Sequence record: OR352947.1
Direction: 5' to 3' (one strand)
DNA length: 64,000 nt
From: Escherichia phage AV117
The notes under the pieces were generated by a model. It saw only the letters and a program-made list of their open reading frames with translations, did no database searches and had not been told where the DNA came from. Shown one piece after another: positions 8,523 through 46,368 of this stretch; the stretch's first letter is position 1; each line of letters starts with the position of its first letter. A program made the position numbers and the translations under genes.

Positions 8523-8534
8523 ATTTTTCTCTCA

Positions 8535-8735
8535 TCACAAGTTACGTTTAAAAATTTCTGCTACTTCAAGAAGTTCTTCTTTAGTAGCTGTATCGGTTTG
8601 TATTTTATATCGAATTTCCTTAAAGCGTTCTTTAAAGGCTTCGGCTGATTCGATATCAAAAAATCTTTGGATAAGCCGGAATTCCCGGAGCACTGCTTTA
8701 TCAAAAAGTTCCAAGTCCACGTTATATGTTCTCAT
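8535..8735 (-). CDS. hypothetical protein (rIIA.1 position)
   Basis: 66 aa ORF directly downstream of rIIA. Confidence 0.45.
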   Translation of the reverse strand: MRTYNVDLELFDKAVLREFRLIQRFFDIESAEAFKERFKEIRYKIQTDTATKEELLEVAEIFKRNL

Positions 8736-8827
8736 AATATTCTCTTCAGTAGATTCCTAGGGCACTATTACTAAAGACCATATAATCTATCATCTTATGT
8801 GTAATAGTGCCTCAGGCTATTCAGGAT

Positions 8828-21577: not shown

Positions 21578-22114
21578 TCAGTAACCATTATCCTGGCGTT
21601 CAAAGTTGTGTTGGTTTTTCAAGTAGTAAAGTTTAAAGATTTCTTCAGCGGAAAGACCAAGACCTTGGAACATATTCAGAACAAAGTGCAGAATATCAAT
21701 CATCTCGAATTTAATTTCGAGCTGGTCTTCAGGAGACAGTTCATCGATACGACGATTTCGATATTCAGCATGTTGAGCTTTCCAAGGCTTCCATACAGAG
21801 CTAGCGGCTTTTTCACCATTGCTCATACCACCGAGTGAAGTCAACAGTTCACGGAATTCATCATCAATATAATCTTTCTGATTACGCAGCCAATCAACAA
21901 CATCGCCAGCAGTGGCCAATTCGTCAGGATGTTTGTTATGTTCAGGCTTATCATTTGCCAGACGAATCTGTAAAGATTTCTGCATATCAAGCATTACCTG
22001 CAGAGGGTCTTTATCTTCATGAATCAGAGCATTAAAATAAGCTTCTTCTGCTTTATCAACACCAGAAATAAGTTGTGAACATTCGTTAAAGTGCGCCATT
22101 ATTTTTCCTTTCAA
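21578..22114 (-). CDS. 56: dCTPase/dUTPase (gp56, MazG-like dCTP pyrophosphatase)
   Basis: start probably MAHFNEC (as in T4 gp56); DKDPLQVMLDMQ...LANDK and C-terminal EIFKLYYLKN blocks match my recollection of T4 gp56. Confidence 0.88.
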   Translation of the reverse strand: MKGKIMAHFNECSQLISGVDKAEEAYFNALIHEDKDPLQVMLDMQKSLQIRLANDKPEHNKHPDELATAGDVVDWLRNQKDYIDDEFRELLTSLGGMSNGEKAASSVWKPWKAQHAEYRNRRIDELSPEDQLEIKFEMIDILHFVLNMFQGLGLSAEEIFKLYYLKNQHNFERQDNGY

Positions 22115-25140: not shown

Positions 25141-25389
25141 TTATTCTTTTTCGCGAATAATAATTACTTGTTGAGTCTGCTGAGCAGATTTCTTTTCGGC
25201 AACGATAGACCAAATTAAAGTTCCAATCCAACCAACCATCGTCCAGTTAAAGAGTAAAGATACAAAGAAGATTGCTGTTGTGCTTTTTGTGCCACGAATA
25301 AGTGCGATTACCCAAGGCAACATGTAAATGATGATTGAACCAATACCTGCGATTAAAACTGCTACTGAACTAGCTACGAATAATTCCAT
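25141..25389 (-). CDS. imm: superinfection immunity protein Imm-like (membrane)
   Basis: 82 aa; LPWVIALIRGTK...IFFVSLLFNWTMVGW...LIWS fits the Imm superinfection-immunity family signature as I recall it. Confidence 0.6.
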   Translation of the reverse strand: MELFVASSVAVLIAGIGSIIIYMLPWVIALIRGTKSTTAIFFVSLLFNWTMVGWIGTLIWSIVAEKKSAQQTQQVIIIREKE

Positions 25390-25450: not shown

Positions 25451-25819
25451 TTAATTAAATTTGTTTAAACGTTCAATACACTGGACGTAGTTATTTGCGA
25501 TTTGTTTCTGGGTAGGCTCTTTACCGGTTGTTTCAACATAGCGAATGAATGCTATTTCAGTAGCCTGTAGACAATGTTCTTTAACGCGTTGTTCTTTTGG
25601 CAATGCTACAGTATCAGAGTCACGATAACGTTGAGCATGGGCATCAGCTTGAATCATTCGATTACCTACAGTAACCGGGTCTTCCACTTCAACTTTAGGT
25701 TGGTCATACTGTTTAACATTCGGATTGTAAATCAGTTGGCCAACGTTATTAGGGATAAAGCCATGGGCACCACATCCGGTTAATCCAAATACCATTGCTA
25801 AAGCGATTAATTTTTTCAT
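25451..25819 (-). CDS. putative lipoprotein (122 aa)
   Basis: signal peptide with lipobox LTGC. Confidence 0.5.
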   Translation of the reverse strand: MKKLIALAMVFGLTGCGAHGFIPNNVGQLIYNPNVKQYDQPKVEVEDPVTVGNRMIQADAHAQRYRDSDTVALPKEQRVKEHCLQATEIAFIRYVETTGKEPTQKQIANNYVQCIERLNKFN

Positions 25820-27117: not shown

Positions 27118-28560
27118 TTAAAATTTTAACTCATTGGCTAAGCTATCTAGGTCAGCACGTGTTGCTTTGGCTTTACCTACGCGTTCCGTACGATTCACCT
27201 CTGCCTGACGCATCTGAGCACCTGCGTTTTCATTTACTGTGTTAGGTGTGTTCATGCCTTCTTGCTCAATCTCAACCCATTTCTGGTTGCCTTTACGTAC
27301 ACCCATCAGGAATTTATTCCACTTATTCTTATCACCATATCGTGATTTGATCTGTTTGATAAGTTGTTGTTCAGCTTGTGCAAGTTCTTCGGTTTCAATT
27401 ACGGCCAACATGAAATCTGCTGTTGCTGGTAAACCTGCTGATTCTGCAATATCACTCATGTTCATATCCGAAGCATCCCATGCTGCACGTCCTACTTGAG
27501 CTGCAGTCCATAGAACTGTTTCAGATTCTACTGCTAATGCACGAAGTTCTTCTGCGATAGCTTTAACTAATGTGTAGCTATTTTCAGTGTAAACTCTGAT
27601 ACGACAAGACCCACAAATACCTAAGTAATCAACCATGATTACAGATGGCACAAAGTTCTTCTTGAGTTTCAATTCATTAAGCAATGCACGGAATGTATTA
27701 GCATTAGCTCCGCCAGTAGGATACTGTTTAACTACTAAACGTCCTAATGTTGTTTTTGAACGCCATTTTTCCATCTTGGCTTTATATTCAGCATAAGATA
27801 CGTTACCATCATCAATATCATCAAGTGATACGTCAAGCATGTTTGCATCTATACGCTTAGCGCAAACTTCTTCGGCCATTTCCATGGAAATATAAAGAAC
27901 ATTATGACCTGTTTGAAGATAATCTGCAGCAAGTGAACAAAGGCCTAAAGATTTACCAACGTTAACACCAGCCATTAAAACATTCAGCGTACCGGTTTCA
28001 GCACCACCTTTAGTGATTTTATTCAGAACGTTTAATTTGAACGGGACCTTACGTGCTTTATTTAGATAAGAAAGCCAGCGTGCTTCATAGTCTTCCATCC
28101 AGTCATGTCCAACATAACTATCAAACGAAATTGAAAGTGCTTGACGCATAATATCAGGAATAGCTCCTACGTCAGGCATTTTCTTGTTACGTTGTTCTGG
28201 AGGTAGTTCAGCATTAGACTGAATCTCAATGATTTTGGACGTAGCGTTATACATCGCTTTTTGCTGGACGTATTTCTCAGTTTCTTTAACCAACCATTCG
28301 TGGTCTTCAGGAGTATCAGCCAATTTTTCAATTAGGTCTGAAGTTCCTTTATATTCAGCTTCAGTTAAAGAACTGTTATCTAAAGCCACCTTTAATGCAT
28401 TTATAGACGGCATTGCATTATATTCGTTAACGTGGCTCTTTATAATTTTAAAGACATTTTTTGCCGGTCCACGCTCAAAATACTCAGAATCCATATAAGG
28501 CCAGACCTTAGAAAAATAAGCCTGGTCATATACTAGATGAGACAAAATAATTTCTACCAC
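27118..28560 (-). CDS. 41: replicative DNA helicase gp41 (DnaB-like)
   Basis: 480 aa; Walker A GVNVGKS, RecA-like core; position between 61 and uvsX. Confidence 0.95.
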   Translation of the reverse strand: MVEIILSHLVYDQAYFSKVWPYMDSEYFERGPAKNVFKIIKSHVNEYNAMPSINALKVALDNSSLTEAEYKGTSDLIEKLADTPEDHEWLVKETEKYVQQKAMYNATSKIIEIQSNAELPPEQRNKKMPDVGAIPDIMRQALSISFDSYVGHDWMEDYEARWLSYLNKARKVPFKLNVLNKITKGGAETGTLNVLMAGVNVGKSLGLCSLAADYLQTGHNVLYISMEMAEEVCAKRIDANMLDVSLDDIDDGNVSYAEYKAKMEKWRSKTTLGRLVVKQYPTGGANANTFRALLNELKLKKNFVPSVIMVDYLGICGSCRIRVYTENSYTLVKAIAEELRALAVESETVLWTAAQVGRAAWDASDMNMSDIAESAGLPATADFMLAVIETEELAQAEQQLIKQIKSRYGDKNKWNKFLMGVRKGNQKWVEIEQEGMNTPNTVNENAGAQMRQAEVNRTERVGKAKATRADLDSLANELKF

Positions 28561-28569
28561 GATAACTCC

Positions 28570-28932
28570 TTAAAAGAATTTAAATTTTTTCTTGGTCCGT
28601 TCATTAAAAGCTTGTTGTACTTGCATTGTAACACATTTTTCAACATGCGGTGCAAGTTCTGCTTTTCTGTCCTGGTCAAGAACTGCAAAGTCCATTACGA
28701 TTTTACCATCAACCCAGTCTAGTTTTGTAATATAGACTATATGATGAGAACCATCTTCAAGTGTAATCAGAATCTCTTGAATGACATTTTCCATTGCTGA
28801 ACGGATAATTTTAAGAGATTCATTAAACACTCGTTCTTTGCGAATGTCTTCCCCTTCCGAAGAAGGGGATTCATCAACGATTTCTAGATTTAAATCATCG
28901 AGATTATTCATCGAAATCTTCCATTTCGTCAA
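28570..28932 (-). CDS. 40: gp40-like protein (head vertex assembly chaperone position)
   Basis: 120 aa between 41 and uvsX as in T4; sequence identity not verified. Confidence 0.5.
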   Translation of the reverse strand: MTKWKISMNNLDDLNLEIVDESPSSEGEDIRKERVFNESLKIIRSAMENVIQEILITLEDGSHHIVYITKLDWVDGKIVMDFAVLDQDRKAELAPHVEKCVTMQVQQAFNERTKKKFKFF

Positions 28933-30076
28933 GGTCGTTTTCTATATCTGCTGCAGACGGAGCATCAGAAGTTTTAACCGGAACTTTAGTTGTGGCTTTG
29001 CAATTAATAAGGTCATTAACAGCGTCATCAACTTCTTTAATAGAAGAGATAGCACCTAGTTTATATTTAGTTTCAATTGCATCTCGGAAAGGTTTGTGTT
29101 TAAACAAAGGTCCCCAGAATTCTACACAATCAGTAGCTTTAGCACGCCATGATTTTTCTTCACGAATCATTTCGCCAGTTTCTTCGTCAAGGAATTCACG
29201 AGCATACCAACCAGCTTTAGGCTTAACTACAAAACCAATTTCAGTTGCCATTTCTAACAAGCCACTGAATGGGTCGATACCACCATCAAAATTAACAGTG
29301 ATTGGGAAAGTAGATTTTTCTTTAACGGTGCGAGATTTTTCTGCTTTCAACGTGAAGTCATAACCGGTCAATTCTGTACCTTCTTTAACCTGACGTTTAG
29401 AGATAAAAAATACCGTGTTGGCAGAATAAAGAATACCTGTACCACCACCCATAATCTCTTTAGGATACAATCCGCCGATTTCCATTGCTGTATGGTTGAT
29501 TGCAACACATGGAATATCTTTAATAGTCAGATAAGGAGTCACAATGCGGAACAGAGATTTAAGTGCCTTAGCACGAGACATATCACCTACAACTTTCTCG
29601 TTCAATGCATCTTCAGTTTCTTTCTTAGATGCAGTATTACCGATTGAATCGATAAAGATAATAACTTTATCACCGCGTTCAATCGCGTCAAGCTGATTAG
29701 TCATATCAACTTTAAGTTGTTCGACAGATTGAATCGGAGTATGAACTACACGGTCTAAATCAACACCCATTGAACGAAAATAAGATTCTGAAGCACCAAA
29801 TTCCGAATCATAGAACAAACAAATTGCATCTTTATATTTCTTCATATATGCTGCAACCATGGTCAGCCCAAACAACGTTTTAAAGTGTTTAGAAGGAGCA
29901 GCAAAAATAGTTAAGCCTGATTGCAACCCGGCATTCAGTGCACCACCTAATGCAATATTCAACATCGGAATACGAGTAGGGACTTCATCGCGATTATTAA
30001 ACAACTTAGACTTAGTCAAGTCTGCAGTCATTTTAGAAGTAGAAGCTTTAATCAGACGAGATTTTAAATCAGACAT
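28904..30076 (-). CDS. uvsX: UvsX recombinase (RecA/Rad51-like)
   Basis: 390 aa; RecA core, Walker-type motifs; length as T4 UvsX. Confidence 0.95.
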   Translation of the reverse strand: MSDLKSRLIKASTSKMTADLTKSKLFNNRDEVPTRIPMLNIALGGALNAGLQSGLTIFAAPSKHFKTLFGLTMVAAYMKKYKDAICLFYDSEFGASESYFRSMGVDLDRVVHTPIQSVEQLKVDMTNQLDAIERGDKVIIFIDSIGNTASKKETEDALNEKVVGDMSRAKALKSLFRIVTPYLTIKDIPCVAINHTAMEIGGLYPKEIMGGGTGILYSANTVFFISKRQVKEGTELTGYDFTLKAEKSRTVKEKSTFPITVNFDGGIDPFSGLLEMATEIGFVVKPKAGWYAREFLDEETGEMIREEKSWRAKATDCVEFWGPLFKHKPFRDAIETKYKLGAISSIKEVDDAVNDLINCKATTKVPVKTSDAPSAADIENDLDEMEDFDE

Positions 30077-30175: not shown

Positions 30176-30724
30176 TTAACGAGCCCATTTGATAATTTCT
30201 GTAATCAAATTATTACGTTCGCTTGCATTAAATCCTATAACTTTGTTAGCACCATCATGATTAAGTAATTGATACGTTTGGATTTTGTTATGAATTGCAA
30301 ACTCTTCAAAATATGAAATGACTGTATTAAAACCGAATGAAGACAAAGTAATAAGGTCGTCTTCAAAACTTTCAGTCATTTCGTTACGTGTTAAAATAAT
30401 TGTGAACACATCATGGTTTTGGCAAAGACGAACATAATCCTGTTCATAAACGTCAAGAACCGAGTCCACATCTTGTCGAATACGTCCATAAACCCAGTTA
30501 CTAATATATCCACGGTCTAACAGATAAATCTTAGTAGGGTCTAAATAATTCAACATCGTTTCGAAACAGCCAACTTCATTTCGAGACTTAACATCGAAAC
30601 GTCCATCAACTGTTCGTTTAGGGAAATCAATCTTTACATATCTTTCACTAATTTCCATTATGTCATTAATGAAAGTTGTTTTACCAGCATTATCCGGGCC
30701 ATCTACTAAAATAATTTTAGCCAT
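30176..30724 (-). CDS. thymidylate-kinase-like P-loop nucleotide kinase
   Basis: 182 aa; P-loop ILVDGPDNAGKTT (compare Tmk GxEGxGKTT) and LLDRGY (Tmk DRY-like motif). Confidence 0.55.
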   Translation of the reverse strand: MAKIILVDGPDNAGKTTFINDIMEISERYVKIDFPKRTVDGRFDVKSRNEVGCFETMLNYLDPTKIYLLDRGYISNWVYGRIRQDVDSVLDVYEQDYVRLCQNHDVFTIILTRNEMTESFEDDLITLSSFGFNTVISYFEEFAIHNKIQTYQLLNHDGANKVIGFNASERNNLITEIIKWAR

Positions 30725-30725
30725 T

Positions 30726-31625
30726 TTATTCCTCGATTACGACATCTTCATATTTAGGTATATTATACGGCGAAGAAATTAAAGCATTAAAGTAGATGAA
30801 CTCGCCAAGACCTGGATGGAATACTTCTTCAGGATTTTCGAAGTATTGAATCTTCGGACGTCCTTTAAGAATTTGATAGTACTCAGTTTTAGTTGGTTTA
30901 AAAATTCGAATCAGCGCTTCTTCAGGATACTTATTTCTGTCGAAGCTATTATTTGGATCGGTTATATAAAGCGGTTGACCTAATTGAATTGCACATTCAA
31001 CCACTTGTTCAAAACGATAGCACGGGTCACTAATTCGAAATGGATGAAAAATACCATCTAGATGAATAGGAGCCAAATCACCTACAAGACGCTGCATGAT
31101 GGAAGGACGTATAACTTTCTGCGTTACGATAATCTTATTACCATCTGCACCTGCGTTAACCAGCACTTCTTTTTGACGTTCATTCAACACAGTAGTTTGA
31201 AGTGAACGATTAACAGACAACATGTCGGTTTTTAAGAATTCGTCAATATAAAAACGTGGTTTATTAGGGTCTGCAGTGATATTGAAATTGAATTCTACGT
31301 CAAAAGTGCCGTCATATCCAGTGATATCTGTGATTAGAAAATCACAATCATAATAATCAATTAATGAATCAACCACAAATTCATTTTCAGACCAGAAATA
31401 TTTACGAGTGTTATATGCGTTATCTTTATACCATAATGGAACAAACTTAAATTCTGGGAAAAGTCGTTCACATTCTTTAATATCAGATGCATTACGTGGA
31501 TATGTAATCACATCACCCGGATTAGCACGGTGCAAATGAAGTTGGAAGTTGCCATCCTTAAGGATAGCATACTGTCCAGTTTCATAAGACCGCATACTCA
31601 AGATAGGTACGCGGAAAATAGCCAT
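30726..31625 (-). CDS. hypothetical enzyme (299 aa) in the T4 beta-gt map position
   Basis: no recognisable motif; 1-nt gap to downstream kinase and shared stop/start with the hydroxymethylase. Confidence 0.5.
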   Translation of the reverse strand: MAIFRVPILSMRSYETGQYAILKDGNFQLHLHRANPGDVITYPRNASDIKECERLFPEFKFVPLWYKDNAYNTRKYFWSENEFVVDSLIDYYDCDFLITDITGYDGTFDVEFNFNITADPNKPRFYIDEFLKTDMLSVNRSLQTTVLNERQKEVLVNAGADGNKIIVTQKVIRPSIMQRLVGDLAPIHLDGIFHPFRISDPCYRFEQVVECAIQLGQPLYITDPNNSFDRNKYPEEALIRIFKPTKTEYYQILKGRPKIQYFENPEEVFHPGLGEFIYFNALISSPYNIPKYEDVVIEE

Positions 31626-32341
31626 TAGTCAAGGAATCCTTTAACATAATCAAAATCACGTTCAAACACATGGGCACTTACCATGGTATGAGTATAATCA
31701 CCAACTTCTACACCACATTCTTTAGCGATATAATGAAGTAATTTTCCTTGGAGATAAAAATCCAACTGCATAACAACAGCACAGTTCTGAGAACGCATAT
31801 GGCAGTGGGTATAAAGCTTACCATCACGAATATAATAAGTCACTGAGTCAGTACATGGATATTCAAGTGTTTCGTCCGAATCAAGCAAAGCCTGATCTGA
31901 ACTTTCAAGAATTTGAAACACAACTCTTCGAGAGTTAGGTTTTTCTTTAAGTTCTTTTAGAAGAGTTGGTAACTGGGCCGCAATGCGAGGACCGTAGAAA
32001 GTGTTGAAGTTTGCAGGCAAAGCATCTGATTTCGGTTTAGAAATAAATTTAGCGACGTTAGGATATGCCTTAAATGCTTCTTCTGCATCAGTACCACCAG
32101 AAATCATAAATTTCCAGAAATCTTCAGCATATTCATAAGAGATGCGATTAATACGTGGGTCGGTCATTTTGAATGATGAAGGGGTATCAACAACTACTGT
32201 CATAGACCCAATTTCATTACAACGTCCAATACGAGAATCAGTAACGAACTGTGGATTTTCTAAAATTTCACGATTGACAGCTTTAAATGCGGATTGAAAA
32301 TCTTCGGCTTTAATATATTTCATTGTGTTATGTTTTCCCAT
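31625..32341 (-). CDS. 42: deoxycytidylate 5-hydroxymethyltransferase (gp42-type, thymidylate-synthase fold)
   Basis: 238 aa; PNSRRVVFQIL, YPCTDSVTYYIRDGKL (catalytic Cys), MRSQNCAVVMQLDF align by eye with the T4 gp42 blocks I recall; an Asp appears at the base-specificity position. Confidence 0.78.
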   Translation of the reverse strand: MGKHNTMKYIKAEDFQSAFKAVNREILENPQFVTDSRIGRCNEIGSMTVVVDTPSSFKMTDPRINRISYEYAEDFWKFMISGGTDAEEAFKAYPNVAKFISKPKSDALPANFNTFYGPRIAAQLPTLLKELKEKPNSRRVVFQILESSDQALLDSDETLEYPCTDSVTYYIRDGKLYTHCHMRSQNCAVVMQLDFYLQGKLLHYIAKECGVEVGDYTHTMVSAHVFERDFDYVKGFLD

Positions 32342-32354
32342 GTTTACCTCAATA

Positions 32355-32390
32355 CAGTTATTATATACTCAATTCATAAAGCTTATTTGA
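32355..32390 (-). promoter_or_regulatory. candidate MotA-dependent middle promoter upstream of the hydroxymethylase gene
   Basis: minus strand AAGCTTTA (MotA-box-like) - 11 nt - TATAAT, then GAGGT RBS; approximate. Confidence 0.4.
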
Positions 32391-32478
32391 ATTTCTTAGC
32401 GATGTTGATATAACGTAGAGCTTCGGCTTAGTATTCCAATTGAACAGGTCCTTTAATCACTTTAGCCGCTTTAGTTTC

Positions 32479-32502
32479 AAAAAGGCCCTTATGGGCCTTT
32501 TT
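32479..32502 (-). terminator. strong symmetric hairpin terminator after the 386-aa gene
   Basis: aaaaaggccc-ttat-gggccttttt: 10-bp stem flanked by A5/T5, could terminate in either direction. Confidence 0.55.
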
Positions 32503-32579
32503 AAGAATTTGTTCGTTGCTGTTAATTTTAATAGTCAAAATCTCTTCGTTAAGTTGGTGGTTAAAAGTTTTTCTAGAAA

Positions 32580-33740
32580 TCATTCTGGGTACCTCAAAGC
32601 GTCATCAGAGTTAGTTATATCAATAATAGATATAGAGTTTTCTGATAACCCATTTTTAGATAACTGACGTTTATAATATCTTTCACAATATGTACACGTC
32701 GTCCCACAGATTTCATTAGCACAATCGAAATCTGGATGTTTGAACCACCTTTTTTCTAAAAAGCCGTCTAACAAAGAGGTTTCAATATTTACCGTATGTG
32801 AAAACTCAGTCTCATTTTCAAGAGTGAAAATGGTCTCTAAAGGCTTCCACAATTCCAACAAATTACCTTCAAATTTTTCAGAAGCATAAGCTTCAAGAAC
32901 TTTCAAAATGTAGTCTGTGCTACCTGTACGTCCTGAAACTTTGAATTGAGTGATACCAATATCATTATAAAGTTTCAAATCTTGAGGACGAACAAAACGA
33001 GTTCTCAACCAGTTAAATGGGTCTGTATCACGAGCTTTAATACAGTGTTGCATTGGATATCCATTTAAGGATTTGGCATCATCTACTGTAACGTCAGTGC
33101 TATGGAAAATATAGCAAGAGTCACGATAGCTACAATGTGTTGTATACCCTTTACCAGCATTAGAACAGAACTCATTTACAAGAACTTCAAATATTATATT
33201 GTTCTTATTACAAAACTCTGCTGCACGTTTCAGGAAAGAAACTGAACGGTTCTTATGAATTCCACAGCAGACCTTTTTGATATTATATTGGTCATGCAAG
33301 TATTTGATTTGAGTTACAGCATCGACATGTAGAATTGTTGAAACTTCAATCTCAATGTCTTTATTGACTTCACGAACAATTTCCATAACAACAGGGTTAG
33401 CGATAGTAATACGCCATACGCCTATTGACCAAAGATACTGAACATAATCCTGAATAGCTTTCTTCTTCCACTCAACTAGTTCTCTTTTTGAACCAGGATT
33501 TATCGTGTTGAGTGTATAGTTAAAGCAAATACCTAATTCGTTACAACGTTTAACGTAATCTTCTAACATCTTTTTGTCAACGTCAGGAAGCCTAAAATCA
33601 GGTCTGGCTGCTACAAAAGCCATTTCTCTTGTAGAGCCGTATACTTCGTTTATCAAGCTATTAGGATAAGTTTTATTGAGCTCTACGATTTTATCAAGAA
33701 GAGCTAAATCAAAATTCGTTCCGATTTTAAAAGTATTCAT
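32580..33740 (-). CDS. hypothetical Cys-rich enzyme (386 aa)
   Basis: C-terminal cluster CANEICGTTCTYCERYY (contains C-x3-C-x2-C) plus internal VCCG and CS..AGKGYTTHCSYRDSC; possible metal/Fe-S site; function unknown. Confidence 0.5.
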   Translation of the reverse strand: MNTFKIGTNFDLALLDKIVELNKTYPNSLINEVYGSTREMAFVAARPDFRLPDVDKKMLEDYVKRCNELGICFNYTLNTINPGSKRELVEWKKKAIQDYVQYLWSIGVWRITIANPVVMEIVREVNKDIEIEVSTILHVDAVTQIKYLHDQYNIKKVCCGIHKNRSVSFLKRAAEFCNKNNIIFEVLVNEFCSNAGKGYTTHCSYRDSCYIFHSTDVTVDDAKSLNGYPMQHCIKARDTDPFNWLRTRFVRPQDLKLYNDIGITQFKVSGRTGSTDYILKVLEAYASEKFEGNLLELWKPLETIFTLENETEFSHTVNIETSLLDGFLEKRWFKHPDFDCANEICGTTCTYCERYYKRQLSKNGLSENSISIIDITNSDDALRYPE

Positions 33741-33800
33741 TTTTTTTTTTGCATCCCACGTTAATTGATGCGATGGTTTTTGCAGGTCTTACTTAAATTA

Positions 33801-34202
33801 TTATAGATTCGGTTTATATGATTTAAATGTTTCGAATTCGCCTTTATTCATAAGAGCTTTGAATTCGTCAGGACGCATAGCTTTGTCGTCGATAATCCAA
33901 TCATATACTGGTTTATGTGTTAGCAAATTATGGTACTTCAATCCAATGTTTGCCAAGTTCTGAATCAGACTTGGGAGAATGTCAATTGCTATACGACCAG
34001 GACCGACTGACTTCATACCGCGAGCAGTGTAAAGCGTTATGGTATGCCCTGCATCATACAGGGCATTAATGGCAGACACCATTTCGACGTCTGGTTTGAA
34101 GTTCACGTAATCACGATTGTTATTCCACTCTGTTATACAATCATCGACATCAAAACAAAGATTAAGCATGTTTTCTACACGGTGCATTAGATTCGTTCCC
34201 AT
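33801..34202 (-). CDS. HAD-superfamily phosphatase, small cap-less (KdsC/GmhB-like) form
   Basis: 133 aa; motif I FDVDDCIT (DxDx[TV]), LYTAR, K, DWIIDD; overlaps the upstream gene by 16 nt. Confidence 0.6.
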   Translation of the reverse strand: MGTNLMHRVENMLNLCFDVDDCITEWNNNRDYVNFKPDVEMVSAINALYDAGHTITLYTARGMKSVGPGRIAIDILPSLIQNLANIGLKYHNLLTHKPVYDWIIDDKAMRPDEFKALMNKGEFETFKSYKPNL

Positions 34203-35872
34203 TGATGAGTGATATCGCCACCGATTGGACGATAAGAAACACCGGTTTCTTTATCAGTTAGTACCCATTTACCAGGATTTTTTGTAATCAGAGTAGCCGT
34301 TACAGGTTCTGCTACGTCATAACTAATAGAGCCGTCCTGAAGTACACGGCCCATGTTACGTAATTGCTTAGTCAGAAGTTCCATACCTTTATAATATGCG
34401 GCTACCGCTTTAAGTGGATTATTCTTGAAATAACCACCTAATGCAATCCAGATAATTGCCGCTGCCAAATGATGATACTCGTTAAACGAACTCATCTTTC
34501 CATATTTGTAAACTAATGGATTGATGTTAATAGACACATTACAAGTTGTTTCATCGATAGTAAACTGTCCCCAGGTCGGATTAGCATTGAATTCATCATA
34601 ACCTGAAACAGCGTAAAGCACTTTAGCTTCATCATACAATTTTGGGCCGTAAATCTTGGTTTCGCCAAAATATCCACGAGGGTCGATAAACTTGACTTCG
34701 CCGTTATCAGTAATCATAGTATTACTGAAGTTCGGGTCACCATGAATAACAGAGTACTGTCCCTGAGAACGGTTATGATAACGAATAAGGTGTTCTAAAG
34801 CTTGTTTCAGCATTGGTTTCAGACGCCCAATCTTAGTGTAGTTCACATGTGTGATTTTACCAAATGAATCAATCAATGGTTGAATACTTTCACAACGATC
34901 AATGACTTTAGTATAGAATTCTTTAGTGAAATCACGACGAACAGTTTCAGGACTTACAAAATAAGTGTCTGTGCTGAATTTCAGTGCGTCTAAAATTGCA
35001 TCAACAATTTGTGGACGAGCAAGACTCGATTTGGATTTAATATATTCAAATGCTGGCTTACCTTTAATGCGTTCCATTTCAAAGTTATTTTCATTAACAG
35101 AAACTAACTGAGGAACTGAATCTGATTTCACTTTAAGATACCATGAAATCTCATCTTTCTGAAGAGCTCGACCCTGTTCGGTTAATGCGAATTTAGTTAC
35201 AGTTTCTTCACCAATTTCAACTGCATTAAAACTACGATTAAGTTCACGAACTTCATGAGCTTTTTCAAGTTTAGGCATATCACCTAAATCAATTAGATTC
35301 ATAAGCTCTGATTTATTGAATGCGCTGCCGTAAAGGAATTCTACGAAATCGCGTCCTTTGCAGTATTCATGAATTTCCTCATCAGTAGAACCCATATAGA
35401 ATTCCCAGTCTTTGAACTGATAAATTCCTACAACATTACCACCTGTTGAACCTACGTTAGTGATATTTTCACCGTCGAAATTATATCGACATTCGTCACC
35501 CTTAACATAGATTGCGTTAACATTCCAAGACCATGAACCAAAATCAGGAATAATATCACACCAGTTAACAATTACATTATGGCCGTCTAAATCTTTGTGC
35601 AATTTAGCAAGAGCATAAGCAGAACCATACGCTTCATCAACTGTACGAATAGTCACATTGAACCCTTCTTGCTCACAATAAGCTCGAACAGTTTCAGCAA
35701 ATTTTGAATGAACTACTACAATAATTTCATCTGCGCCAAGGTCAGAATAAATTGTATACAAATTGCTCAGAATAGTGTCTTGTTTATAATTAACAAGCAC
35801 CTTAGGAATATGATGCGTTATTGGATACAAACGAGTTGCCAGTCCAGCACCAAGAATAACAGCTTTTTTCAT
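34187..35872 (-). CDS. bifunctional sugar-1-phosphate nucleotidyltransferase (N-terminal) / APH-like anomeric sugar kinase (C-terminal)
   Basis: 561 aa; N-terminal AVILGAGLATRLYPIT..IPK (RmlA/GlmU-type GxGTRL motif); C-terminal VIHGDPNFSNTMI and FIDPRG (HxDxxxxN catalytic loop and IDxxG of aminoglycoside/choline-kinase fold). Confidence 0.7.
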   Translation of the reverse strand: MKKAVILGAGLATRLYPITHHIPKVLVNYKQDTILSNLYTIYSDLGADEIIVVVHSKFAETVRAYCEQEGFNVTIRTVDEAYGSAYALAKLHKDLDGHNVIVNWCDIIPDFGSWSWNVNAIYVKGDECRYNFDGENITNVGSTGGNVVGIYQFKDWEFYMGSTDEEIHEYCKGRDFVEFLYGSAFNKSELMNLIDLGDMPKLEKAHEVRELNRSFNAVEIGEETVTKFALTEQGRALQKDEISWYLKVKSDSVPQLVSVNENNFEMERIKGKPAFEYIKSKSSLARPQIVDAILDALKFSTDTYFVSPETVRRDFTKEFYTKVIDRCESIQPLIDSFGKITHVNYTKIGRLKPMLKQALEHLIRYHNRSQGQYSVIHGDPNFSNTMITDNGEVKFIDPRGYFGETKIYGPKLYDEAKVLYAVSGYDEFNANPTWGQFTIDETTCNVSININPLVYKYGKMSSFNEYHHLAAAIIWIALGGYFKNNPLKAVAAYYKGMELLTKQLRNMGRVLQDGSISYDVAEPVTATLITKNPGKWVLTDKETGVSYRPIGGDITHQWERI

Positions 35873-35913
35873 GTTGTGGTCCTCATTGGTAAGTAGGAGT
35901 ATTGTACACTATT

Positions 35914-36057
35914 CTAGTTAAAGCATTCATACTTTGCTTGTAGTCCAATCATAATCCATCCGATTATAAGAGTCGGAACCATTACTGGAGCCGTTAAGCT
36001 CCAGTAGATAGTCATGACAAGCATCAATAGTAAAAGTCCTATTGTTATTGCTTTCAT
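35914..36057 (-). CDS. small membrane protein (about 47 aa), translationally coupled to the isomerase gene
   Basis: MKAITIGLLLLMLVMTIYWSL...; ATG overlaps the SIS gene stop (ATGA); GAGG RBS; approximate. Confidence 0.35.
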   Translation of the reverse strand: MKAITIGLLLLMLVMTIYWSLTAPVMVPTLIIGWIMIGLQAKYECFN

Positions 36058-36689
36058 TGTTCGCCTCGTAACATGGCACCTAGTGCACCGCCAGGGTGGA
36101 ACTTAAGGAAGTCATTAGAGGTAAATCCACGCTCAGACGAAAGGTTGATAGCAAACGTATCGATAAGCGCTAACAACAATGTAGTGGACATAGTCGGAGC
36201 CAGAGAATTCTCATCAACCTCTACTGCGATGCCTGTACAGAAAGAGTAATCAAAAAGGGCTTCATTTTCTTGTGGAATGTCTGGGTTACAATGCAACAGA
36301 ATCTGTTTGACGTTAGGACGAATCATTTTAAGATGCTTAGCCACGCCTATCATTTCTTCAGTTTTACCAGAACGACTAATATGAATCAACACATCATTAG
36401 GCGCAATGAATCCTGCATCACCGTGAGAATAATGCCCAGTGTTCAAGTACATACTCGGGATACCGAGTGAAGCAAATGTCTCAGAAGCTTTAGTTGCAAT
36501 ATTAGCATTCTTACCAACACCCGTAATAATTACTCGGCTTTCATAATTACTAAGTCCAGGGCGTCGAAGAGTTTCTAGAATAGCATTATAACGAGCAGGG
36601 TTTTGACTAATTACTTTGGCCATAGCGGCCAAAGAAGAAGCTTGTTTTATGATTGCGTCAATAGCGATAGTAATAGGAGTAGTTTTCAT
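36054..36689 (-). CDS. arabinose-5-phosphate isomerase-like SIS-domain protein (KpsF/GutQ-type, no CBS domains)
   Basis: 211 aa; FASLGIPSMYLNTGHYSHGDAGFI, ISRSGKTEEM, LAPTMSTTLLLALIDTFAI and RGFTSNDFLKFHPGGALG align block-for-block with the KpsF motifs I recall. Confidence 0.78.
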   Translation of the reverse strand: MKTTPITIAIDAIIKQASSLAAMAKVISQNPARYNAILETLRRPGLSNYESRVIITGVGKNANIATKASETFASLGIPSMYLNTGHYSHGDAGFIAPNDVLIHISRSGKTEEMIGVAKHLKMIRPNVKQILLHCNPDIPQENEALFDYSFCTGIAVEVDENSLAPTMSTTLLLALIDTFAINLSSERGFTSNDFLKFHPGGALGAMLRGEQ

Positions 36690-36729: not shown

Positions 36730-39441
36730 TCAAAAATCGAACATATCGAACAGAGATGCTTTCTTCTCGTAATCGAGTTTCGCTGCTGATGTGAATCCTT
36801 CAAGTGGTTTAATAAATGTCTTCTCAAGGAGAACAGTGTAGTCCATCCAATGAAGTACGTCGTCTTTAATTAAATCTGTGATTTCAGTACCAGAAGGCCA
36901 TGCGATACATTTATCACCGAATGGGTTTCCTTCACGTAAAGGCAGAACATATACTTTTTCACCTTCTACAACTTGCGGTGCATCGATATTACCTTTGATA
37001 GCCCGGTTATACGTCAGAATTCCACGAATATGGAATGGACATTTAGGACCAGGGAATCCACCTACATCATATTTAGCAATGTTATTCGCAGAAGATACCG
37101 ACGCGATGCTAATATAATTCAATTGACGGAATTCTTTTTCAAACTCTTTAAAATATTCTTGTAATGATTCTTCACCTTCTTGAAGCATACGACGAATACA
37201 TTCTTTAAGAGCTTTCTGTACTGCTTTAGGAGTCGAAGATTTCTGAGTCTCTAGACCCATGATTTTGAGTTTAGGCTCAGCGTAACGAGTACCTTCCATA
37301 TCCCACACGTTTAATGCATAACGTTTCTTACCAGTCCAGAATCCGCCAATACCTTTAGAACCAAGCGGAGGCCCAGCGATAGCTTCTCGGTCCATGAACA
37401 TTAAGTGTTGTTTATTGTTCATGTATTCACACATTTCACGGAAACCTCTATCAATAGCTGGTTCCATACGTTCACGTGCAAACTTATCTAAGAAGTCTAC
37501 CCAATGGTTGGTATCACGGAATTTAGATTCACCAACCTTATCGATAATTTTATCAGCAGATACGTAAATAGAGTCTGTATCACCGTAAAGAACGAAAGCT
37601 TCACCTTCTGTGCCACAAACTTCATTCAGATATTCATTAACTTTACGTTCAATCCACTGTAAAGCCATTTGACCAAATGTTGTGATTGCAGTAGCATTAC
37701 GCAAATCATAATAACGGAACCAAACGTTTCCAAGTGCACCATAAAGTGAGTTGATAAGCAATTTACGGTTAATTTGGGCAGTCATACCTGCAACTTCAGT
37801 ACGTTGAGCTCTAAACAACATTTCATTAAGAGATTTAGCAGACAACTTTTTAATCTTTTCTTTAATCTCATCACTGAAGTCGAAACGATAATCAACATCT
37901 AATGGTTCGTCAACAGAAAGATTAGGATTATGCAATGCCTCTTTAATTATTTCACCATTACGTTGAGCTGCAAGCATGTAACCTTTATGTTCTTTACGTT
38001 GATTAAAGACCTTAGTGATTTCGGTTGGAACTACACCGTCACGGTCTTTATAATACATCATGCCGTTAGGAGAACAACTGTACACATCAGAAGGACGCTC
38101 AGCGATTGCGTTAATATAATCATGCAGTGGAGCTACTTTAAACGTTCCTGCTATTGTTTCTGGGCTAATATTCACTTGGCGAATAATACTTGGATACAGA
38201 GATGTAAGGTCGAAACTCATTACATATTTGTATCGATTTGGAATAGGTTCCTTAACAAAAGCGCCAGGATAAGGTTGAACCGGGTGAGAACGACCTTGTG
38301 GAATCACCTTGTTCTGCTCTTTAAGGCTATTAAAAATAATAGCATCCCATGTTTTAATTGGACTAAACACAGATTGAATCTGTATCTTAGCATAATAACC
38401 CATGTCCAAGCTCAAGTTAATGAACTGACGTTTACCATCAATTTGCAATACACGATACACGTCGATAATGTTATAAGAAATATATCGTTGGTGATTGCTT
38501 TCACGAAGCTTAGAAATAGGGCCGTCATATTTCAGTTTACCAACGTTCAATTCAAATTCTGAAATGTAATCCAGAGAATATGATGGTTGATTGGTAAAAG
38601 AGAATTTTTTGTAAAGGTCAATGTAATCAAGAACAGAGATACCGAACAATGTAATGATTTCACGAGAACCATACATGTTTTCGATAACTTTAACACGAGT
38701 TTTACGATGTGGTGACAACCGTTTTGCTGTGGATTCGCCAAAAATATTCTTGATTCGGTTATACACATATGGAATATCAAATGACTCAACGTTCCATCCA
38801 GTCAAAATGACAGGAGTTTTCTGTTGCCAGAAGTTGAGATATTCCATCAACAATTCTTTTTCGTTATCGAACGGCATATAAATGATTTTATCGATAATTT
38901 CGGATGGAACTTCATCACCACCTTGTTCTTGAAGCTTAGCCGCAATTTCGATAGACCATTCTTCTACATTACCATATGGAGAATTCAATAGATCAAATAC
39001 GTAGAACCTGTCGTCAATTGAGTCATAATGGGTGATAGCATCAATCGGATGTTTTGCTTGTGACGGCTCAGGGAACCCGTCCGGAGATGTTACTTCGATG
39101 TCGAAGTTAGCCACACGAATTTTTGTATGGTCGTATTTGATTTCATAGTTATAAGTGTCAGACAAATACGCTAATTTGAAATCGTCCATGCCAAGTGCTT
39201 CAAGTCCGATATCTTCCATGCGTTTAATCCATTGGGAGGCATCACGCATATTGGCGAACAACTTACGAGTACACGGCTTACCGTAGATATCGAAATATTT
39301 CGTAGCCTGACTTTCTGGACAATGAGCAAACAGTGATGGTTTATATTCTACTTCACGAGTACGTTCACGGCCATTAGAATCGATGTAACGTTCAAAAATT
39401 GAATCACCAATCTGTTCAACCGTTAAGTAAAATTCTTTCAT
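36730..39441 (-). CDS. 43: DNA polymerase gp43 (family B)
   Basis: 903 aa; exo motifs (FDIEV, YNIIDV), polymerase motifs (DxxSLYPS, YGDTDS); N-terminus MKEFYLTVEQIGDSIFERYIDSNGRERTREVEYKPSLFAH matches the RB69 polymerase as I recall it. Confidence 0.97.
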   Translation of the reverse strand: MKEFYLTVEQIGDSIFERYIDSNGRERTREVEYKPSLFAHCPESQATKYFDIYGKPCTRKLFANMRDASQWIKRMEDIGLEALGMDDFKLAYLSDTYNYEIKYDHTKIRVANFDIEVTSPDGFPEPSQAKHPIDAITHYDSIDDRFYVFDLLNSPYGNVEEWSIEIAAKLQEQGGDEVPSEIIDKIIYMPFDNEKELLMEYLNFWQQKTPVILTGWNVESFDIPYVYNRIKNIFGESTAKRLSPHRKTRVKVIENMYGSREIITLFGISVLDYIDLYKKFSFTNQPSYSLDYISEFELNVGKLKYDGPISKLRESNHQRYISYNIIDVYRVLQIDGKRQFINLSLDMGYYAKIQIQSVFSPIKTWDAIIFNSLKEQNKVIPQGRSHPVQPYPGAFVKEPIPNRYKYVMSFDLTSLYPSIIRQVNISPETIAGTFKVAPLHDYINAIAERPSDVYSCSPNGMMYYKDRDGVVPTEITKVFNQRKEHKGYMLAAQRNGEIIKEALHNPNLSVDEPLDVDYRFDFSDEIKEKIKKLSAKSLNEMLFRAQRTEVAGMTAQINRKLLINSLYGALGNVWFRYYDLRNATAITTFGQMALQWIERKVNEYLNEVCGTEGEAFVLYGDTDSIYVSADKIIDKVGESKFRDTNHWVDFLDKFARERMEPAIDRGFREMCEYMNNKQHLMFMDREAIAGPPLGSKGIGGFWTGKKRYALNVWDMEGTRYAEPKLKIMGLETQKSSTPKAVQKALKECIRRMLQEGEESLQEYFKEFEKEFRQLNYISIASVSSANNIAKYDVGGFPGPKCPFHIRGILTYNRAIKGNIDAPQVVEGEKVYVLPLREGNPFGDKCIAWPSGTEITDLIKDDVLHWMDYTVLLEKTFIKPLEGFTSAAKLDYEKKASLFDMFDF

Positions 39442-44837: not shown

Positions 44838-45066
44838 TACACGCTTCAGCCATTTTAAGAATAGAGCCAGGAGTATCGTTGTCCATTATATTAAAGCTAA
44901 ATTCAATAGCCCAGTCGGTGCAGACATGAACTGCTTTAACTTCATTGCCTTCAACGCGTAATGGCTCAATCCAATACTTGATAGTGTTCTCGAATCCATC
45001 GTCATCTTTAACGTCCATTTCAACTTCAAGGTTGAGTCCAGCATTGTTAAATTCATCTAAAGTCAT
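44815..45066 (-). CDS. hypothetical protein (83 aa)
   Basis: ORF between 46 and 47. Confidence 0.45.
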   Translation of the reverse strand: MTLDEFNNAGLNLEVEMDVKDDDGFENTIKYWIEPLRVEGNEVKAVHVCTDWAIEFSFNIMDNDTPGSILKMAEACIEDAYND

Positions 45067-46082
45067 TGTGTTGCCTCAATATAAAGTTCGTTGGAATATT
45101 TGACCAGCGCTTCTCTGTCTTCGTCTGAGATATCTGGAATCGCGTCAATATATTCTTTAATGATATCTTGAAGTGATTTAATCTCGATTTCCTGGTCGTC
45201 ATCAGATTCAACACTGTTATCAACTTTAGAAACCATACGAAGAGAGTGAACTACTTTTTCAAGTTCAGATTCAAACTTAGTCAACTCTGAATCAATTTCT
45301 GATACTATAACACGTACGGCTAGATTAGTATAATCAGAATAATTGATTTTGCCTTTAAACGGATAAGTGATTCGTCGATGCCATGTTGTTTCATTAGGAA
45401 TAAATTCCATACGTTCAACATCGGTGTCAAATACCCAGAATCCTCGAGGGTCGTTTTCATCACCTGCAGTAAGGGTCCATGGTGTCCCAATATATTTGAC
45501 GTTAGCAGCTTCAGAGATTGTGTGGAAGTGGCCGGACCAGACTTGTTTATAGGTCTTTAAGAAATCAGGTTCAAGCCCATGAGACTTCATTCCTTTATAG
45601 AAATAAAAGCCATTCAGTTCCCAGTGCCCAACACAAAAAGAAGCAGATGAAGTTTTGATATGTTCAAGAATTTCACCAGTATTTTCTTCGCACATCCAAG
45701 GAATTAAATCAATCAAACATCCGTCAAAATCTACTGTAGTAGGCTTATCATATACTTTAACATTAGGATATTTAGCTAAAAGCTCAGTAGAAGCGTTTGG
45801 AGTTAAAGTATTTTTAAAGTGCATATCATGGTTTCCTACAACAGTATGTAGGGTAATACCAGCATCATCAAGCATTTGAACTATTTCACGTGCGAACTCC
45901 ATAGTTTTATGCGTGATTGCTTTTCGCACATCAAAAATATCACCGTATTGAATCCATGTAGTAATTCCATTTTTCTTGGAATATTCTATCGCCTGCTTAA
46001 TTCCATCCAACTGAATGGATTGAACCCACTCATCATCGGCTTTAACACCTAAATGCCAATCACCTAAATTTAAAATTTTCAT
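45063..46082 (-). CDS. 47: recombination endonuclease subunit gp47 (Mre11/SbcD-like)
   Basis: 339 aa; calcineurin-like phosphoesterase motifs (LGDWH, GNHD, GHWE). Confidence 0.93.
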   Translation of the reverse strand: MKILNLGDWHLGVKADDEWVQSIQLDGIKQAIEYSKKNGITTWIQYGDIFDVRKAITHKTMEFAREIVQMLDDAGITLHTVVGNHDMHFKNTLTPNASTELLAKYPNVKVYDKPTTVDFDGCLIDLIPWMCEENTGEILEHIKTSSASFCVGHWELNGFYFYKGMKSHGLEPDFLKTYKQVWSGHFHTISEAANVKYIGTPWTLTAGDENDPRGFWVFDTDVERMEFIPNETTWHRRITYPFKGKINYSDYTNLAVRVIVSEIDSELTKFESELEKVVHSLRMVSKVDNSVESDDDQEIEIKSLQDIIKEYIDAIPDISDEDREALVKYSNELYIEATQ

Positions 46083-46134
46083 ATTATTTCCTCATTAGTT
46101 AATTCATTCTATCATCCGTTTATAAAGCAAAAAA

Positions 46135-46154
46135 AGGAACTCCGAAGAGTTCCT
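46135..46154 (-). terminator. UUCG-tetraloop terminator upstream of gene 47
   Basis: aggaactc-cgaa-gagttcct; minus RNA followed by UUUUUUUGCUUU. Confidence 0.6.
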
Positions 46155-46368
46155 ATCCACATAGTACACCGTACAGAGGCTCATTTGAACTTTTAAATCG
46201 AATGGGCTTGTATGTAATAGTTCCTTCTGCTTTAGCTTTATCATGAGACTCTTTAAAACGTCTCATCATTTCTACTTTAGAGGAACGAATTTTATTATAA
46301 TCTATTTCAGAAGTCGGGATGTTCGTCATGCATAAGCACCTCTCAGAAAATGCCTAAATCAATTTCTC

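Follow-up and report, generated by a model that had tools for sequence, protein, structure and literature searches.

A probable arabinosyl-5-hydroxycytosine cluster in Escherichia phage AV117 and a candidate oxygen-independent role for its U32-family protein

What do the genes between uvsX and gene 43 of Escherichia phage AV117 make, and on which base is it placed? The window analysed here is a 64,000-nucleotide stretch of this phage (OR352947.1). In it, an island of eight minus-strand open reading frames (ORFs) at 30176-36689 lies between uvsX (28904-30076) and gene 43 (36730-39441), the slot in which T4 has the order uvsX-segA-b-gt-42-imm-imm.1-43. An earlier note on this DNA placed the eight genes accurately, and the T4 content that it gave for the slot (beta-gt, 42, imm and imm.1) agrees with this order, segA besides. 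It read the island as a phage-borne route to an activated pentose that glycosylates 5-hydroxymethylcytosine (hmC) in DNA. The first half of that reading, an activated sugar made by the phage for its own DNA, is upheld here; the acceptor is not. The island is, with a probability of about 90%, the cytosine-hypermodification cluster of the Mosigvirus RB69/HY126 type, the product of which is arabinosyl-5-hydroxycytosine. The chemistry, enzymology and structures of this module have been published, and the main finding is therefore the correct re-discovery of a system already known. The eight-gene module was flagged as a candidate for the synthesis of uridine diphosphate (UDP)-arabinose in 2018 (Thomas 2018), so that the donor pathway had not been left open as the earlier note supposed. 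A UDP-arabinose module is also what the genes are called in the GenBank entry for BASEL phage Bas46 (MZ501056), and chemistry, enzymes and structures followed in 2025-26. The practical value lies in correct annotation: most GenBank records name these genes dCMP hydroxymethylase, peptidase, phosphoheptose isomerase or hypothetical.

The assignment is carried by near-identity to RB69 gp45-gp55, gp3 and gp56 and to the solved HY126 structures 9IQC, 9IQW and 9IQZ. The RB69 genes map one-to-one onto the window by tblastn, with identities of 97.8% (gp45), 100% (gp46), 97.8% (gp47), 97.9% (gp48), 99.0% (gp50), 99.2% (gp51), about 99% (gp52 and gp53), 94% (gp54) and 100% (gp55), followed by gp43 at 99.8%. 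Genes, gene order and signature residues are likewise those of RB69 gp45-gp55 and of the HY126 Afh cluster. The window differs from these in that gp49 is shortened by a 39-bp deletion, and from the RB69 record in that gp46:47 and gp52:53, split there, are single intact ORFs; the splits are known sequencing errors (PMC13326640; Thomas 2018). Compared as DNA, the island matches Escherichia phage HX01 at 98.5% identity, and at least 80% of it is present in 151 phage records at 95-99% identity, which places the window among the RB69-like Mosigviruses. Because so many records carry the island and its GC content matches that of the flanks, with no anomaly in base composition, its presence is not a matter of chance. 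The pathway has been published for RB69, DLP3 and HY126 (PMC13326640).

Which base is modified depends on the thymidylate synthase (TS) homologue (Pfam Thymidylat_synt PF00303, E 1.5e-15, 57.5 bits against a cut-off of 24.3). This protein was aligned with E. coli ThyA, T4 gp42 and five phage orthologues, and residues are given in ThyA numbering. The catalytic C146 is conserved, as are R126, R127, R166 and S167. The window protein also has E143, an acidic residue in place of L143, N169, and D177, the N177D change that goes with a preference for deoxycytidine monophosphate (dCMP); dCMP preference and an acidic residue at L143 are published criteria for 5-hydroxy-dCMP synthase (PMC13326640). The signature E143/C146/N169/D177 is common to the window, RB69, DLP1, WG01, LC53 and Thanatos. 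Position 169 is D in T4 gp42, E. coli ThyA and the L030 ThyA, and D169N has been published as the discriminator of hydroxylases from hydroxymethylases (PMC13326640). Identity to T4 gp42 is 25%, and T4 gp42 structures are not among the best 60 of the 111 PDB matches of the protein. The HY126 hydroxylase (PDB 9IQC/9IR2/9IQU) is four substitutions away over 238 residues. N169 and the low identity to gp42 therefore place the protein outside the gp42-type hydroxymethylases and among the 5-hydroxy-dCMP synthases. Its predicted activity is that of a flavin- and O2-dependent dCMP C5-hydroxylase, not of a gp42-type hydroxymethylase.

The chemistry of the closest relatives has been worked out. RB69 gp48 was shown to make 5-hydroxy-dCMP, with incorporation of 18O2 and a bound flavin, and flavin and O2 use has also been given for the HY126 hydroxylase (PMC13326640). 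RB69 DNA contains mono- and di-arabinofuranosyl 5-hydroxycytosine with an ether bond straight to C5, as determined by mass spectrometry (MS) and nuclear magnetic resonance (NMR) (Lee et al. NAR 2026, PMC13326640), and DLP3 makes tri-arabinosyl-5-hydroxycytosine (5hoC) (PMC13326640). Could a gp42-type enzyme nevertheless make hmC, with arabinose from a phage nucleoside diphosphate (NDP) donor placed on its hydroxymethyl group, as the earlier note proposed? The TS fold, the many GenBank records that say dCMP hydroxymethylase and the report of arabinosyl-hmC for RB69 (Thomas 2018) would speak for it. The asparagine at 169 and the distance from gp42 speak against it, as do the 18O2 and C5-ether results obtained with a phage whose gp48 is 97.9% identical to the window protein. 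The 2018 hmC assignment has itself been declared erroneous (PMC13390438) and corrected to arabinosyl-5-hydroxycytosine (PMC13326640, PMC13390438). Arabinosyl-hmC is thus already refuted for RB69 and very improbable for AV117.

The logic of the module is that of the T4 hmC/glucosyl-hmC system: a dCTPase, a TS-fold enzyme acting on dCMP, a kinase, incorporation by the polymerase and post-replicative glycosylation by GT-B enzymes, all in the same genomic slot between uvsX and gene 43. The two systems differ in their chemistry. T4 adds a hydroxymethyl group from methylene-tetrahydrofolate and takes UDP-glucose from its host, whereas here a hydroxyl is put straight on C5 by flavin/O2 chemistry and the donor is UDP-arabinofuranose made by the phage. 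No homologues of T4 a-gt or b-gt were found in the 64,000-nucleotide window, and the gp56 dCTPase is present, both as the earlier note had it.

How is the sugar made? The isomerase has a SIS domain (PF01380, 41.9 bits against a cut-off of 25) and matches TIGR00393 at E 2e-32, with 113 bits, below the full-length cut-off of 203.7. It aligns to positions 47-202 of the 328 residues of KdsD, and its 211 residues have no Pfam or NCBIfam match to C-terminal CBS domains. It thus shares the SIS catalytic domain with KdsD, GutQ and KpsF; it differs from them in lacking the CBS pair of KdsD and in its purpose, which is Kdo supply there and a nucleotide sugar for DNA here. The HAD phosphatase (AfhF, RB69 gp51) aligns over 128 of 128 residues with HY126 structure 9IQW (E 1.8e-87), is 99.2% identical to RB69p051 and matches TIGR01689 (EcbF/BcbF; E 4e-13) with 49 bits, below the cut-off of 162. 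The bifunctional enzyme (AfhE) is about 99% identical to RB69 gp52:53 (RB69p052/p053) over 561 residues. Its N-terminus is a nucleotidyltransferase (PF00483 NTP_transferase, residues 3-99, E 8e-10, 39.1 bits against a cut-off of 21.2; PDB 1jyk, E 2e-5), and its C-terminal kinase domain has been assigned from structure (PMC13326640). The family calls of the earlier note hold in profile searches for the Tmk-like kinase, the HAD phosphatase, the NTP_transferase domain and the KpsF/GutQ-type SIS isomerase.

The published route runs from ribulose-5-phosphate to D-arabinose-5-phosphate (A5P) by gp55, to arabinofuranose (Araf)-1,5-bisphosphate by the C-terminus of gp52:53, to Araf-1-phosphate by gp51 and to UDP-Araf by the N-terminus of gp52:53 (PMC13326640). 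According to the summary in PMC13326640, He et al. (Nat Chem Biol 2026) reconstituted the last three steps with AfhE and AfhF of HY126, and Mahler et al. (Cell Host Microbe 2025) is counted there among the descriptions of the arabinofuranosyl-5-hydroxycytosine pathway. The earlier note had named the four activities of this route correctly and had them act in another order, with a phosphatase releasing free arabinose for an anomeric kinase; in the published order, as summarised there, the kinase acts first and the 5-phosphate is removed afterwards.

Two transferases would place the sugar. The 299-residue protein of the island, an unknown in the earlier note, has a two-Rossmann GT-B (GT4-like) fold and is a predicted DNA arabinosyltransferase that would transfer arabinofuranose to 5hoC. 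For RB69 gp46:47 this role was assigned by position and fold, and the protein is not marked as experimentally confirmed in Table 1 of PMC13326640. The second transferase, outside the island, matches PDB 9IQZ ('phage HY126 glycosyltransferase') at E 6.5e-250. That the sugar genes work for the host envelope (on Kdo, heptose or capsule intermediates) and not for DNA, as the KdsD/KpsF-like isomerase, the likeness of the HAD protein to capsule phosphatases (TIGR01689) and the database labels 'phosphoheptose isomerase' and 'capsule biosynthesis protein' might suggest, is barely credible: the genes are syntenic and translationally coupled with a base hydroxylase and a DNA glycosyltransferase over many phage genera, HY126 AfhE/AfhF yield UDP-arabinofuranose in vitro (summary in PMC13326640), and arabinofuranose has been found in RB69 DNA (PMC13326640).

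Taken together, the arabinosyl-5-hydroxycytosine pathway of AV117 would run as follows. The gp56 dCTPase would convert dCTP to dCMP, so that only modified nucleotide is incorporated, and the TS-fold enzyme would hydroxylate dCMP at C5 with flavin and O2. Nucleotide kinases would raise the product to 5-hydroxy-dCTP, which the polymerase would use instead of dCTP; the Tmk-like protein is named 'nucleotide kinase' in Table 1 of PMC13326640. In parallel, the SIS isomerase would make A5P from ribulose-5-phosphate, the C-terminal kinase domain of the bifunctional enzyme would convert it to arabinofuranose-1,5-bisphosphate, the HAD phosphatase would take off the 5-phosphate and the N-terminal domain would form UDP-arabinofuranose. 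The GT-B enzyme of the island would then put the first arabinose on the 5-hydroxyl, on DNA, and the distant transferase would add the second. The hydroxylase reaction, the AfhE/AfhF steps and the RB69 nucleoside structure have been shown elsewhere for near-identical proteins, and AV117 probably does the same, judging from that near-identity.

Several points weigh against this assignment. For AV117 it depends on how closely the proteins match those of RB69 and HY126; the isomerase step and what the Tmk-like kinase does are read from fold; the AfhE/AfhF enzymology is taken second-hand from the summary in PMC13326640; and residues 308-409 of the bifunctional enzyme give weak, sub-threshold Pfam matches to Fructosamin_kin, EcKL, APH and RIO1. 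As a separate observation, the Dhakavirus WG01 has the TS-type hydroxylase, transferase, Tmk-like kinase, HAD protein and bifunctional enzyme without U32 and without a SIS isomerase. A 166-residue hypothetical protein stands at the isomerase position, and the source of the pentose phosphate may therefore differ in Dhakaviruses.

This pathway does not account for the cysteine-rich protein of the island (RB69 gp50), likewise an unknown in the earlier note. What is its role? It belongs to the U32 family (Pfam Peptidase_U32 PF01136, E 6e-11, 42.4 bits against a cut-off of 22.4). Its AlphaFold2 model has a mean confidence (pLDDT) of 92, and the best Foldseek match in the PDB is the U32 protein 5D88, the rest being generic TIM barrels; a PDB sequence search gave no match at E<=1. 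C203, C209 and C233 align with C169, C176 and C193 of UbiU, with C170, C177 and C193 of TrhP and with C169, C176 and C192 of RlhA. We take the cluster-ligand numbering of UbiU/V to be that of Pelosi et al. 2019. The C232 region of UbiU has no counterpart, and candidates for a fourth ligand are the invariant C192, C158, C177 or the C-terminal CX4CX3CX2C. Profile comparison with hhalign, which is weak evidence here, ranks RlhA first (E 9.6e-6, probability 83%), followed by TrhP (3e-3) and UbiU (8e-3).

The U32 members of known function are RlhA, which forms ho5C2501 of 23S rRNA, TrhP, which forms ho5U34 of tRNA, and UbiU/UbiV of anaerobic ubiquinone synthesis, and all are O2-independent and prephenate-dependent (PMC5727448, PMC6599085, PMC10990095). 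The phage protein shares with them the Pfam domain, a core built as a TIM barrel, three cysteines that align with Fe-S ligands and, in phage relatives, a genomic link to a source of prephenate. The cytosine C5 hydroxylation carried out by RlhA is the transformation proposed below for the phage protein. It differs from these enzymes in its identity of about 20-25% over the core, in lacking the C-terminal extensions of the RNA enzymes, in the invariant CX4CX3CX2C and extra cysteines 158, 177 and 192, and in its substrate, which would be a deoxynucleotide or DNA.

The U32 protein is the most conserved island protein across genera, with identities of 80-89%. The TS-type hydroxylase reaches 70-82%, gp43 69-83% at full-length coverage and gp41 (27118-28560) 58-73%. 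Conservation above that of polymerase and helicase could reflect very strong constraint or a recent horizontal spread of the U32 module. The TS-type hydroxylase was found in 373 phage records and U32 in 221. U32 is accessory to the pathway: it is missing from Acinetobacter Lazarusviruses (DLP1) and from E. coli Dhakaviruses (WG01), which do have the hydroxylase, the transferase and sugar genes, and DLP3 still makes tri-arabinosyl-5hoC (PMC13326640). Phages of strict aerobes appear to lack U32: no Acinetobacter or Rhizobium phages appear among the ten commonest genera of the U32 tally, and the TS-type hydroxylase occurs in 57 and 20 records of such phages. A strict rule of host lifestyle was considered for U32 and set aside as imperfect, since the E. 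coli Dhakaviruses have the hydroxylase without it.

The neighbours of U32 point to prephenate. A type II chorismate mutase of 75-124 residues adjoins the U32 gene in 56 T4-like phage records of many genera (for example at L005:6158-6397, L011:5983-6240, L012:5884-6228 and L013:5854-6228; Pfam CM_2, E 2.4e-10); its catalytic Arg/Arg/Lys/Ser/Gln are conserved, and only some records label it. Counted by locus, 13 of the 15 T4-like loci and 14 of 42 others have a CM_2 chorismate mutase next to U32. Four of these 14, on uncultured contigs, carry it as a DAHP-synthase/chorismate-mutase fusion (L039:8399-9430, L043:8323-9384, L042:7290-8354 and L053:11076-12194), which gives phages a way of their own into and out of the shikimate pathway. 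In Shewanella phage Thanatos-1 the U32 and chorismate mutase genes keep together as a pair elsewhere within the cluster; the Thanatos paper does not discuss a role for either. No chorismate mutase was found in the window, and Mosigviruses are without it.

Uncultured viral contigs, some as long as 294 kb, also encode relatives of U32 (40-55% identity); there the gene adjoins a homologue of the 299-residue transferase or sits in transferase-isomerase-bifunctional-U32 arrays. No TS-type hydroxylase was found within 10 kb of U32 in 42 uncultured viral loci, the sole TS near such a U32 being a canonical ThyA (L143/D169/N177). Among 100,044 species genomes there were seven U32 matches, all in anaerobic lineages (Erysipelotrichales, Bacillota, Romboutsia twice, Tannerella, Phocaeicola and candidate division BRC1). 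Two further contexts have no sugar genes: one with dCMP deaminase, Tmk and UDG, the other with NT5C, dNK and nucleoside deoxyribosyltransferase. On contigs binned to Bacteroidales, BRC1 and Bacillota (L003:7185-7982 + 8001-9098; L064, L066, L067, L068), a protein of about 265 residues with no Pfam match always precedes U32. In L003, NT5C, PnuC, dNK, a radical-SAM/SPASM protein, a second U32-like protein and nucleoside deoxyribosyltransferase follow, and this type of locus may be a different nucleoside-modification system.

By analogy with its characterised relatives, the U32 protein may be an Fe-S, prephenate-dependent and O2-independent pyrimidine C5-hydroxylase that backs up the TS-type hydroxylase under anoxia, a proposal to which we give slightly better than even odds. 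It would hydroxylate C5 of a cytosine nucleotide with prephenate as oxygen donor; the prephenate would come from the phage chorismate mutase or, in Mosigvirus, from host PheA/TyrA. The product, 5-hydroxy-dCMP or 5-hydroxycytosine in DNA, would offer the handle for glycosylation without O2, a condition in which the flavin enzyme cannot act. T4-like phages whose hosts are facultative anaerobes would thus hold two hydroxylases for one base, in parallel to their aerobic and anaerobic ribonucleotide reductases (the NrdAB/NrdDG pair); nrdG is annotated just downstream of the island region in RB69. The small chorismate mutase beside U32 in most other genera would be the phage supply of the oxygen donor, and in uncultured phages of strict anaerobes U32 would be the only hydroxylase feeding the DNA glycosyltransferase. 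A literature search that did not take in He et al. 2026 and Mahler et al. 2025 found no paper linking gp50 or U32 to anaerobic hydroxylation of DNA cytosine. Three caveats attach to this proposal: Dhakaviruses have E. coli as host although they lack U32, the chorismate mutase has been lost from Mosigviruses, and the substrate could be dUMP, DNA or RNA.

Does U32 work on the sugar side instead, as a reductase or in UDP-arabinose biosynthesis? Table 1 of PMC13326640 gives RB69 gp50 as 'sugar or heterocycle reductase' from the 5D88 fold match and does not place it in the U32 hydroxylase family, and the Bas46 record has 'enzyme involved in UDP-arabinose biosynthesis'. The gene does lie among sugar genes, in uncultured phages often by isomerase or bifunctional homologues, and its TIM-barrel fold is common to many sugar enzymes. 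However, AfhE and AfhF alone are reported to take A5P to UDP-Araf (summary in PMC13326640), sugar genes occur without U32 in the DLP-type phages and the Dhakaviruses, and DLP3 completes its modification all the same. Pentose chemistry has no use for a chorismate mutase, the partner of U32, and the homologues beside dCMP deaminase, NT5C and dNK do without sugar genes. A sugar-side function is unlikely on this evidence.

Another candidate function is that of a TrhP/RlhA-like RNA hydroxylase, which would tune translation by acting on phage or host tRNA or rRNA and have nothing to do with DNA modification. T4-like phages encode tRNAs, all characterised nucleic-acid U32 enzymes act on RNA, and RlhA is the best profile match. 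Against this, the gene stays within the DNA-modification cluster despite rearrangement, as in Thanatos, directly adjoins the DNA glycosyltransferase family in unrelated phages, and encodes a protein without the long C-terminal extensions of TrhP and RlhA. We regard an RNA substrate as quite improbable. We know of no U32 member with an established proteolytic mechanism. A genuine peptidase, as the family name, automated annotation and most database records would have it, is highly implausible, given that the characterised U32 members found are hydroxylases (PMC5727448, PMC6599085, PMC10990095), that the invariant cysteine set is typical of Fe-S binding and that the genomic context is nucleotide and sugar metabolism.

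If the anaerobic C5-hydroxylase proposal is correct, it would give the U32 hydroxylase family its first substrate in a DNA pathway and explain why phages carry chorismate mutase. It would also explain how gut phages that depend on a hydroxylase in need of O2 maintain full DNA modification in its absence, which bears on how restriction and CRISPR are evaded in vivo and on the use of Mosigvirus-type phages in therapy. Finally, it would point to glycosylated hydroxypyrimidine DNA in phages of strict anaerobes.

A ninth small ORF, overlooked by the earlier note, occupies the 238-nucleotide gap between the TS and U32 genes. It is the orthologue of RB69 gp49, in which a 39-bp in-frame deletion has made a TAA stop at its junction, leaving 51 of 79 residues; 14 codons run on in frame after the stop, and the slot spans 32386-32583 on the minus strand. 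The same slot holds a 40-residue ORF in HY126 and the full 79-residue ORF in Bas46 and RB69. HX01 probably shares the deletion, since it is the only single-piece megablast match. With gp49 shortened in these isolates, Mosigvirus may be able to do without it. In several genera gp49 forms a separate small gene family after U32. That it is a (degenerate) AroQ chorismate mutase was considered and rejected: it has no Pfam or NCBIfam match and no BLASTP similarity to the Entb_45 chorismate mutase, and the two genes coexist as separate neighbours in PM2, TG1 and L029.

Table 1. Features of the AV117 modification island and associated genes elsewhere in the window (positions in the 64,000-nucleotide window).
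Feature	Position	Strand	Remarks
Tmk-like P-loop nucleotide kinase, RB69 gp45 orthologue	30176-30724	-	182 aa; PHROG 761 thymidylate kinase E 7e-45; tblastn to RB69p045
Predicted GT-B DNA arabinosyltransferase 1	30726-31625	-	299 aa; RB69 gp46:47 counterpart, single ORF
Predicted 5-hydroxy-dCMP synthase, RB69 gp48 orthologue	31625-32341	-	238 aa; TS fold, signature residues
Putative middle-promoter-like element (MotA-box-like AAGCTTTA, 11 nt, TATAAT)	32360-32385	-	pattern match; 5' of hydroxylase gene
Truncated RB69 gp49 orthologue	32428-32583	-	51 aa vs 79 aa; start overlaps U32 stop (ATGA)
U32-family, predicted Fe-S protein, RB69 gp50 orthologue	32580-33740	-	386 aa; Peptidase_U32 6e-11
HAD phosphatase, AfhF / RB69 gp51 type	33801-34187	-	128 aa; alternative ATG at 34202 gives 133 aa
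Bifunctional enzyme, AfhE / RB69 gp52:53 type	34187-35872	-	561 aa, intact; NTP_transferase N-terminus
Two-helix membrane peptide, RB69 gp54 region	35914-36057	-	47 aa; PHROG 3610 full length E 1e-26
Predicted SIS-only KpsF/GutQ-type D-arabinose-5-phosphate isomerase, RB69 gp55	36054-36689	-	211 aa; 100% identity to RB69
Predicted second DNA arabinosyltransferase, RB69 ORF003c / gp3 orthologue	8831-9928	-	outside island; 99.2% identity to RB69p003
gp56 dCTPase	21581-22099	-	96.5% identity to RB69p028

The genes of the island are listed in Table 1, and the overlapping or coupled stops and starts described in the earlier note are borne out. ATGA overlaps join the isomerase to the 47-residue peptide and U32 to gp49, TAATG junctions join the hydroxylase to the transferase and the bifunctional enzyme to the HAD gene, and one nucleotide separates the transferase from the Tmk-like kinase. 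RB69 annotates the HAD start at the equivalent of 34187 (128 residues), as against the ORF at 33801-34202 (133 residues). A counterpart of the 47-residue peptide lies after the isomerase gene in LC53. The island does not replace imm, as the earlier note had suggested: imm (25144-25389) and imm.1 (25454-25819), both on the minus strand, lie between sp and 61.4, as in RB69, and not beside gene 43. The T4 slot for 47.1, a-gt and mobB is empty, being a spacer of about 70 nucleotides (46083-46155) between gene 47 (45066-46082) and a-gt.2 (46156-46317). A phage Tn-seq preprint has no data on the essentiality of the island genes.

A scan of the island for sigma-70 promoters and intrinsic terminators gave counts equal to the shuffled expectation. 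With a hand-made pattern (GCTTTA, 11-13 nucleotides, TAnnnT), putative MotA-box-like motifs were found on the minus strand 5' of the bifunctional (35901-35927), hydroxylase (32360-32385) and kinase genes, the last at 30762-30788 inside the 3' end of the transferase gene; another lies at 34595-34622 inside the bifunctional gene. By analogy with the T4 middle-promoter consensus, these motifs may act as middle promoters. A run of eleven A (33741-33751, minus strand) stands directly 5' of the U32 start, in a 60-nucleotide spacer without an obvious Shine-Dalgarno sequence, and a homopolymer at this translation start could affect expression.

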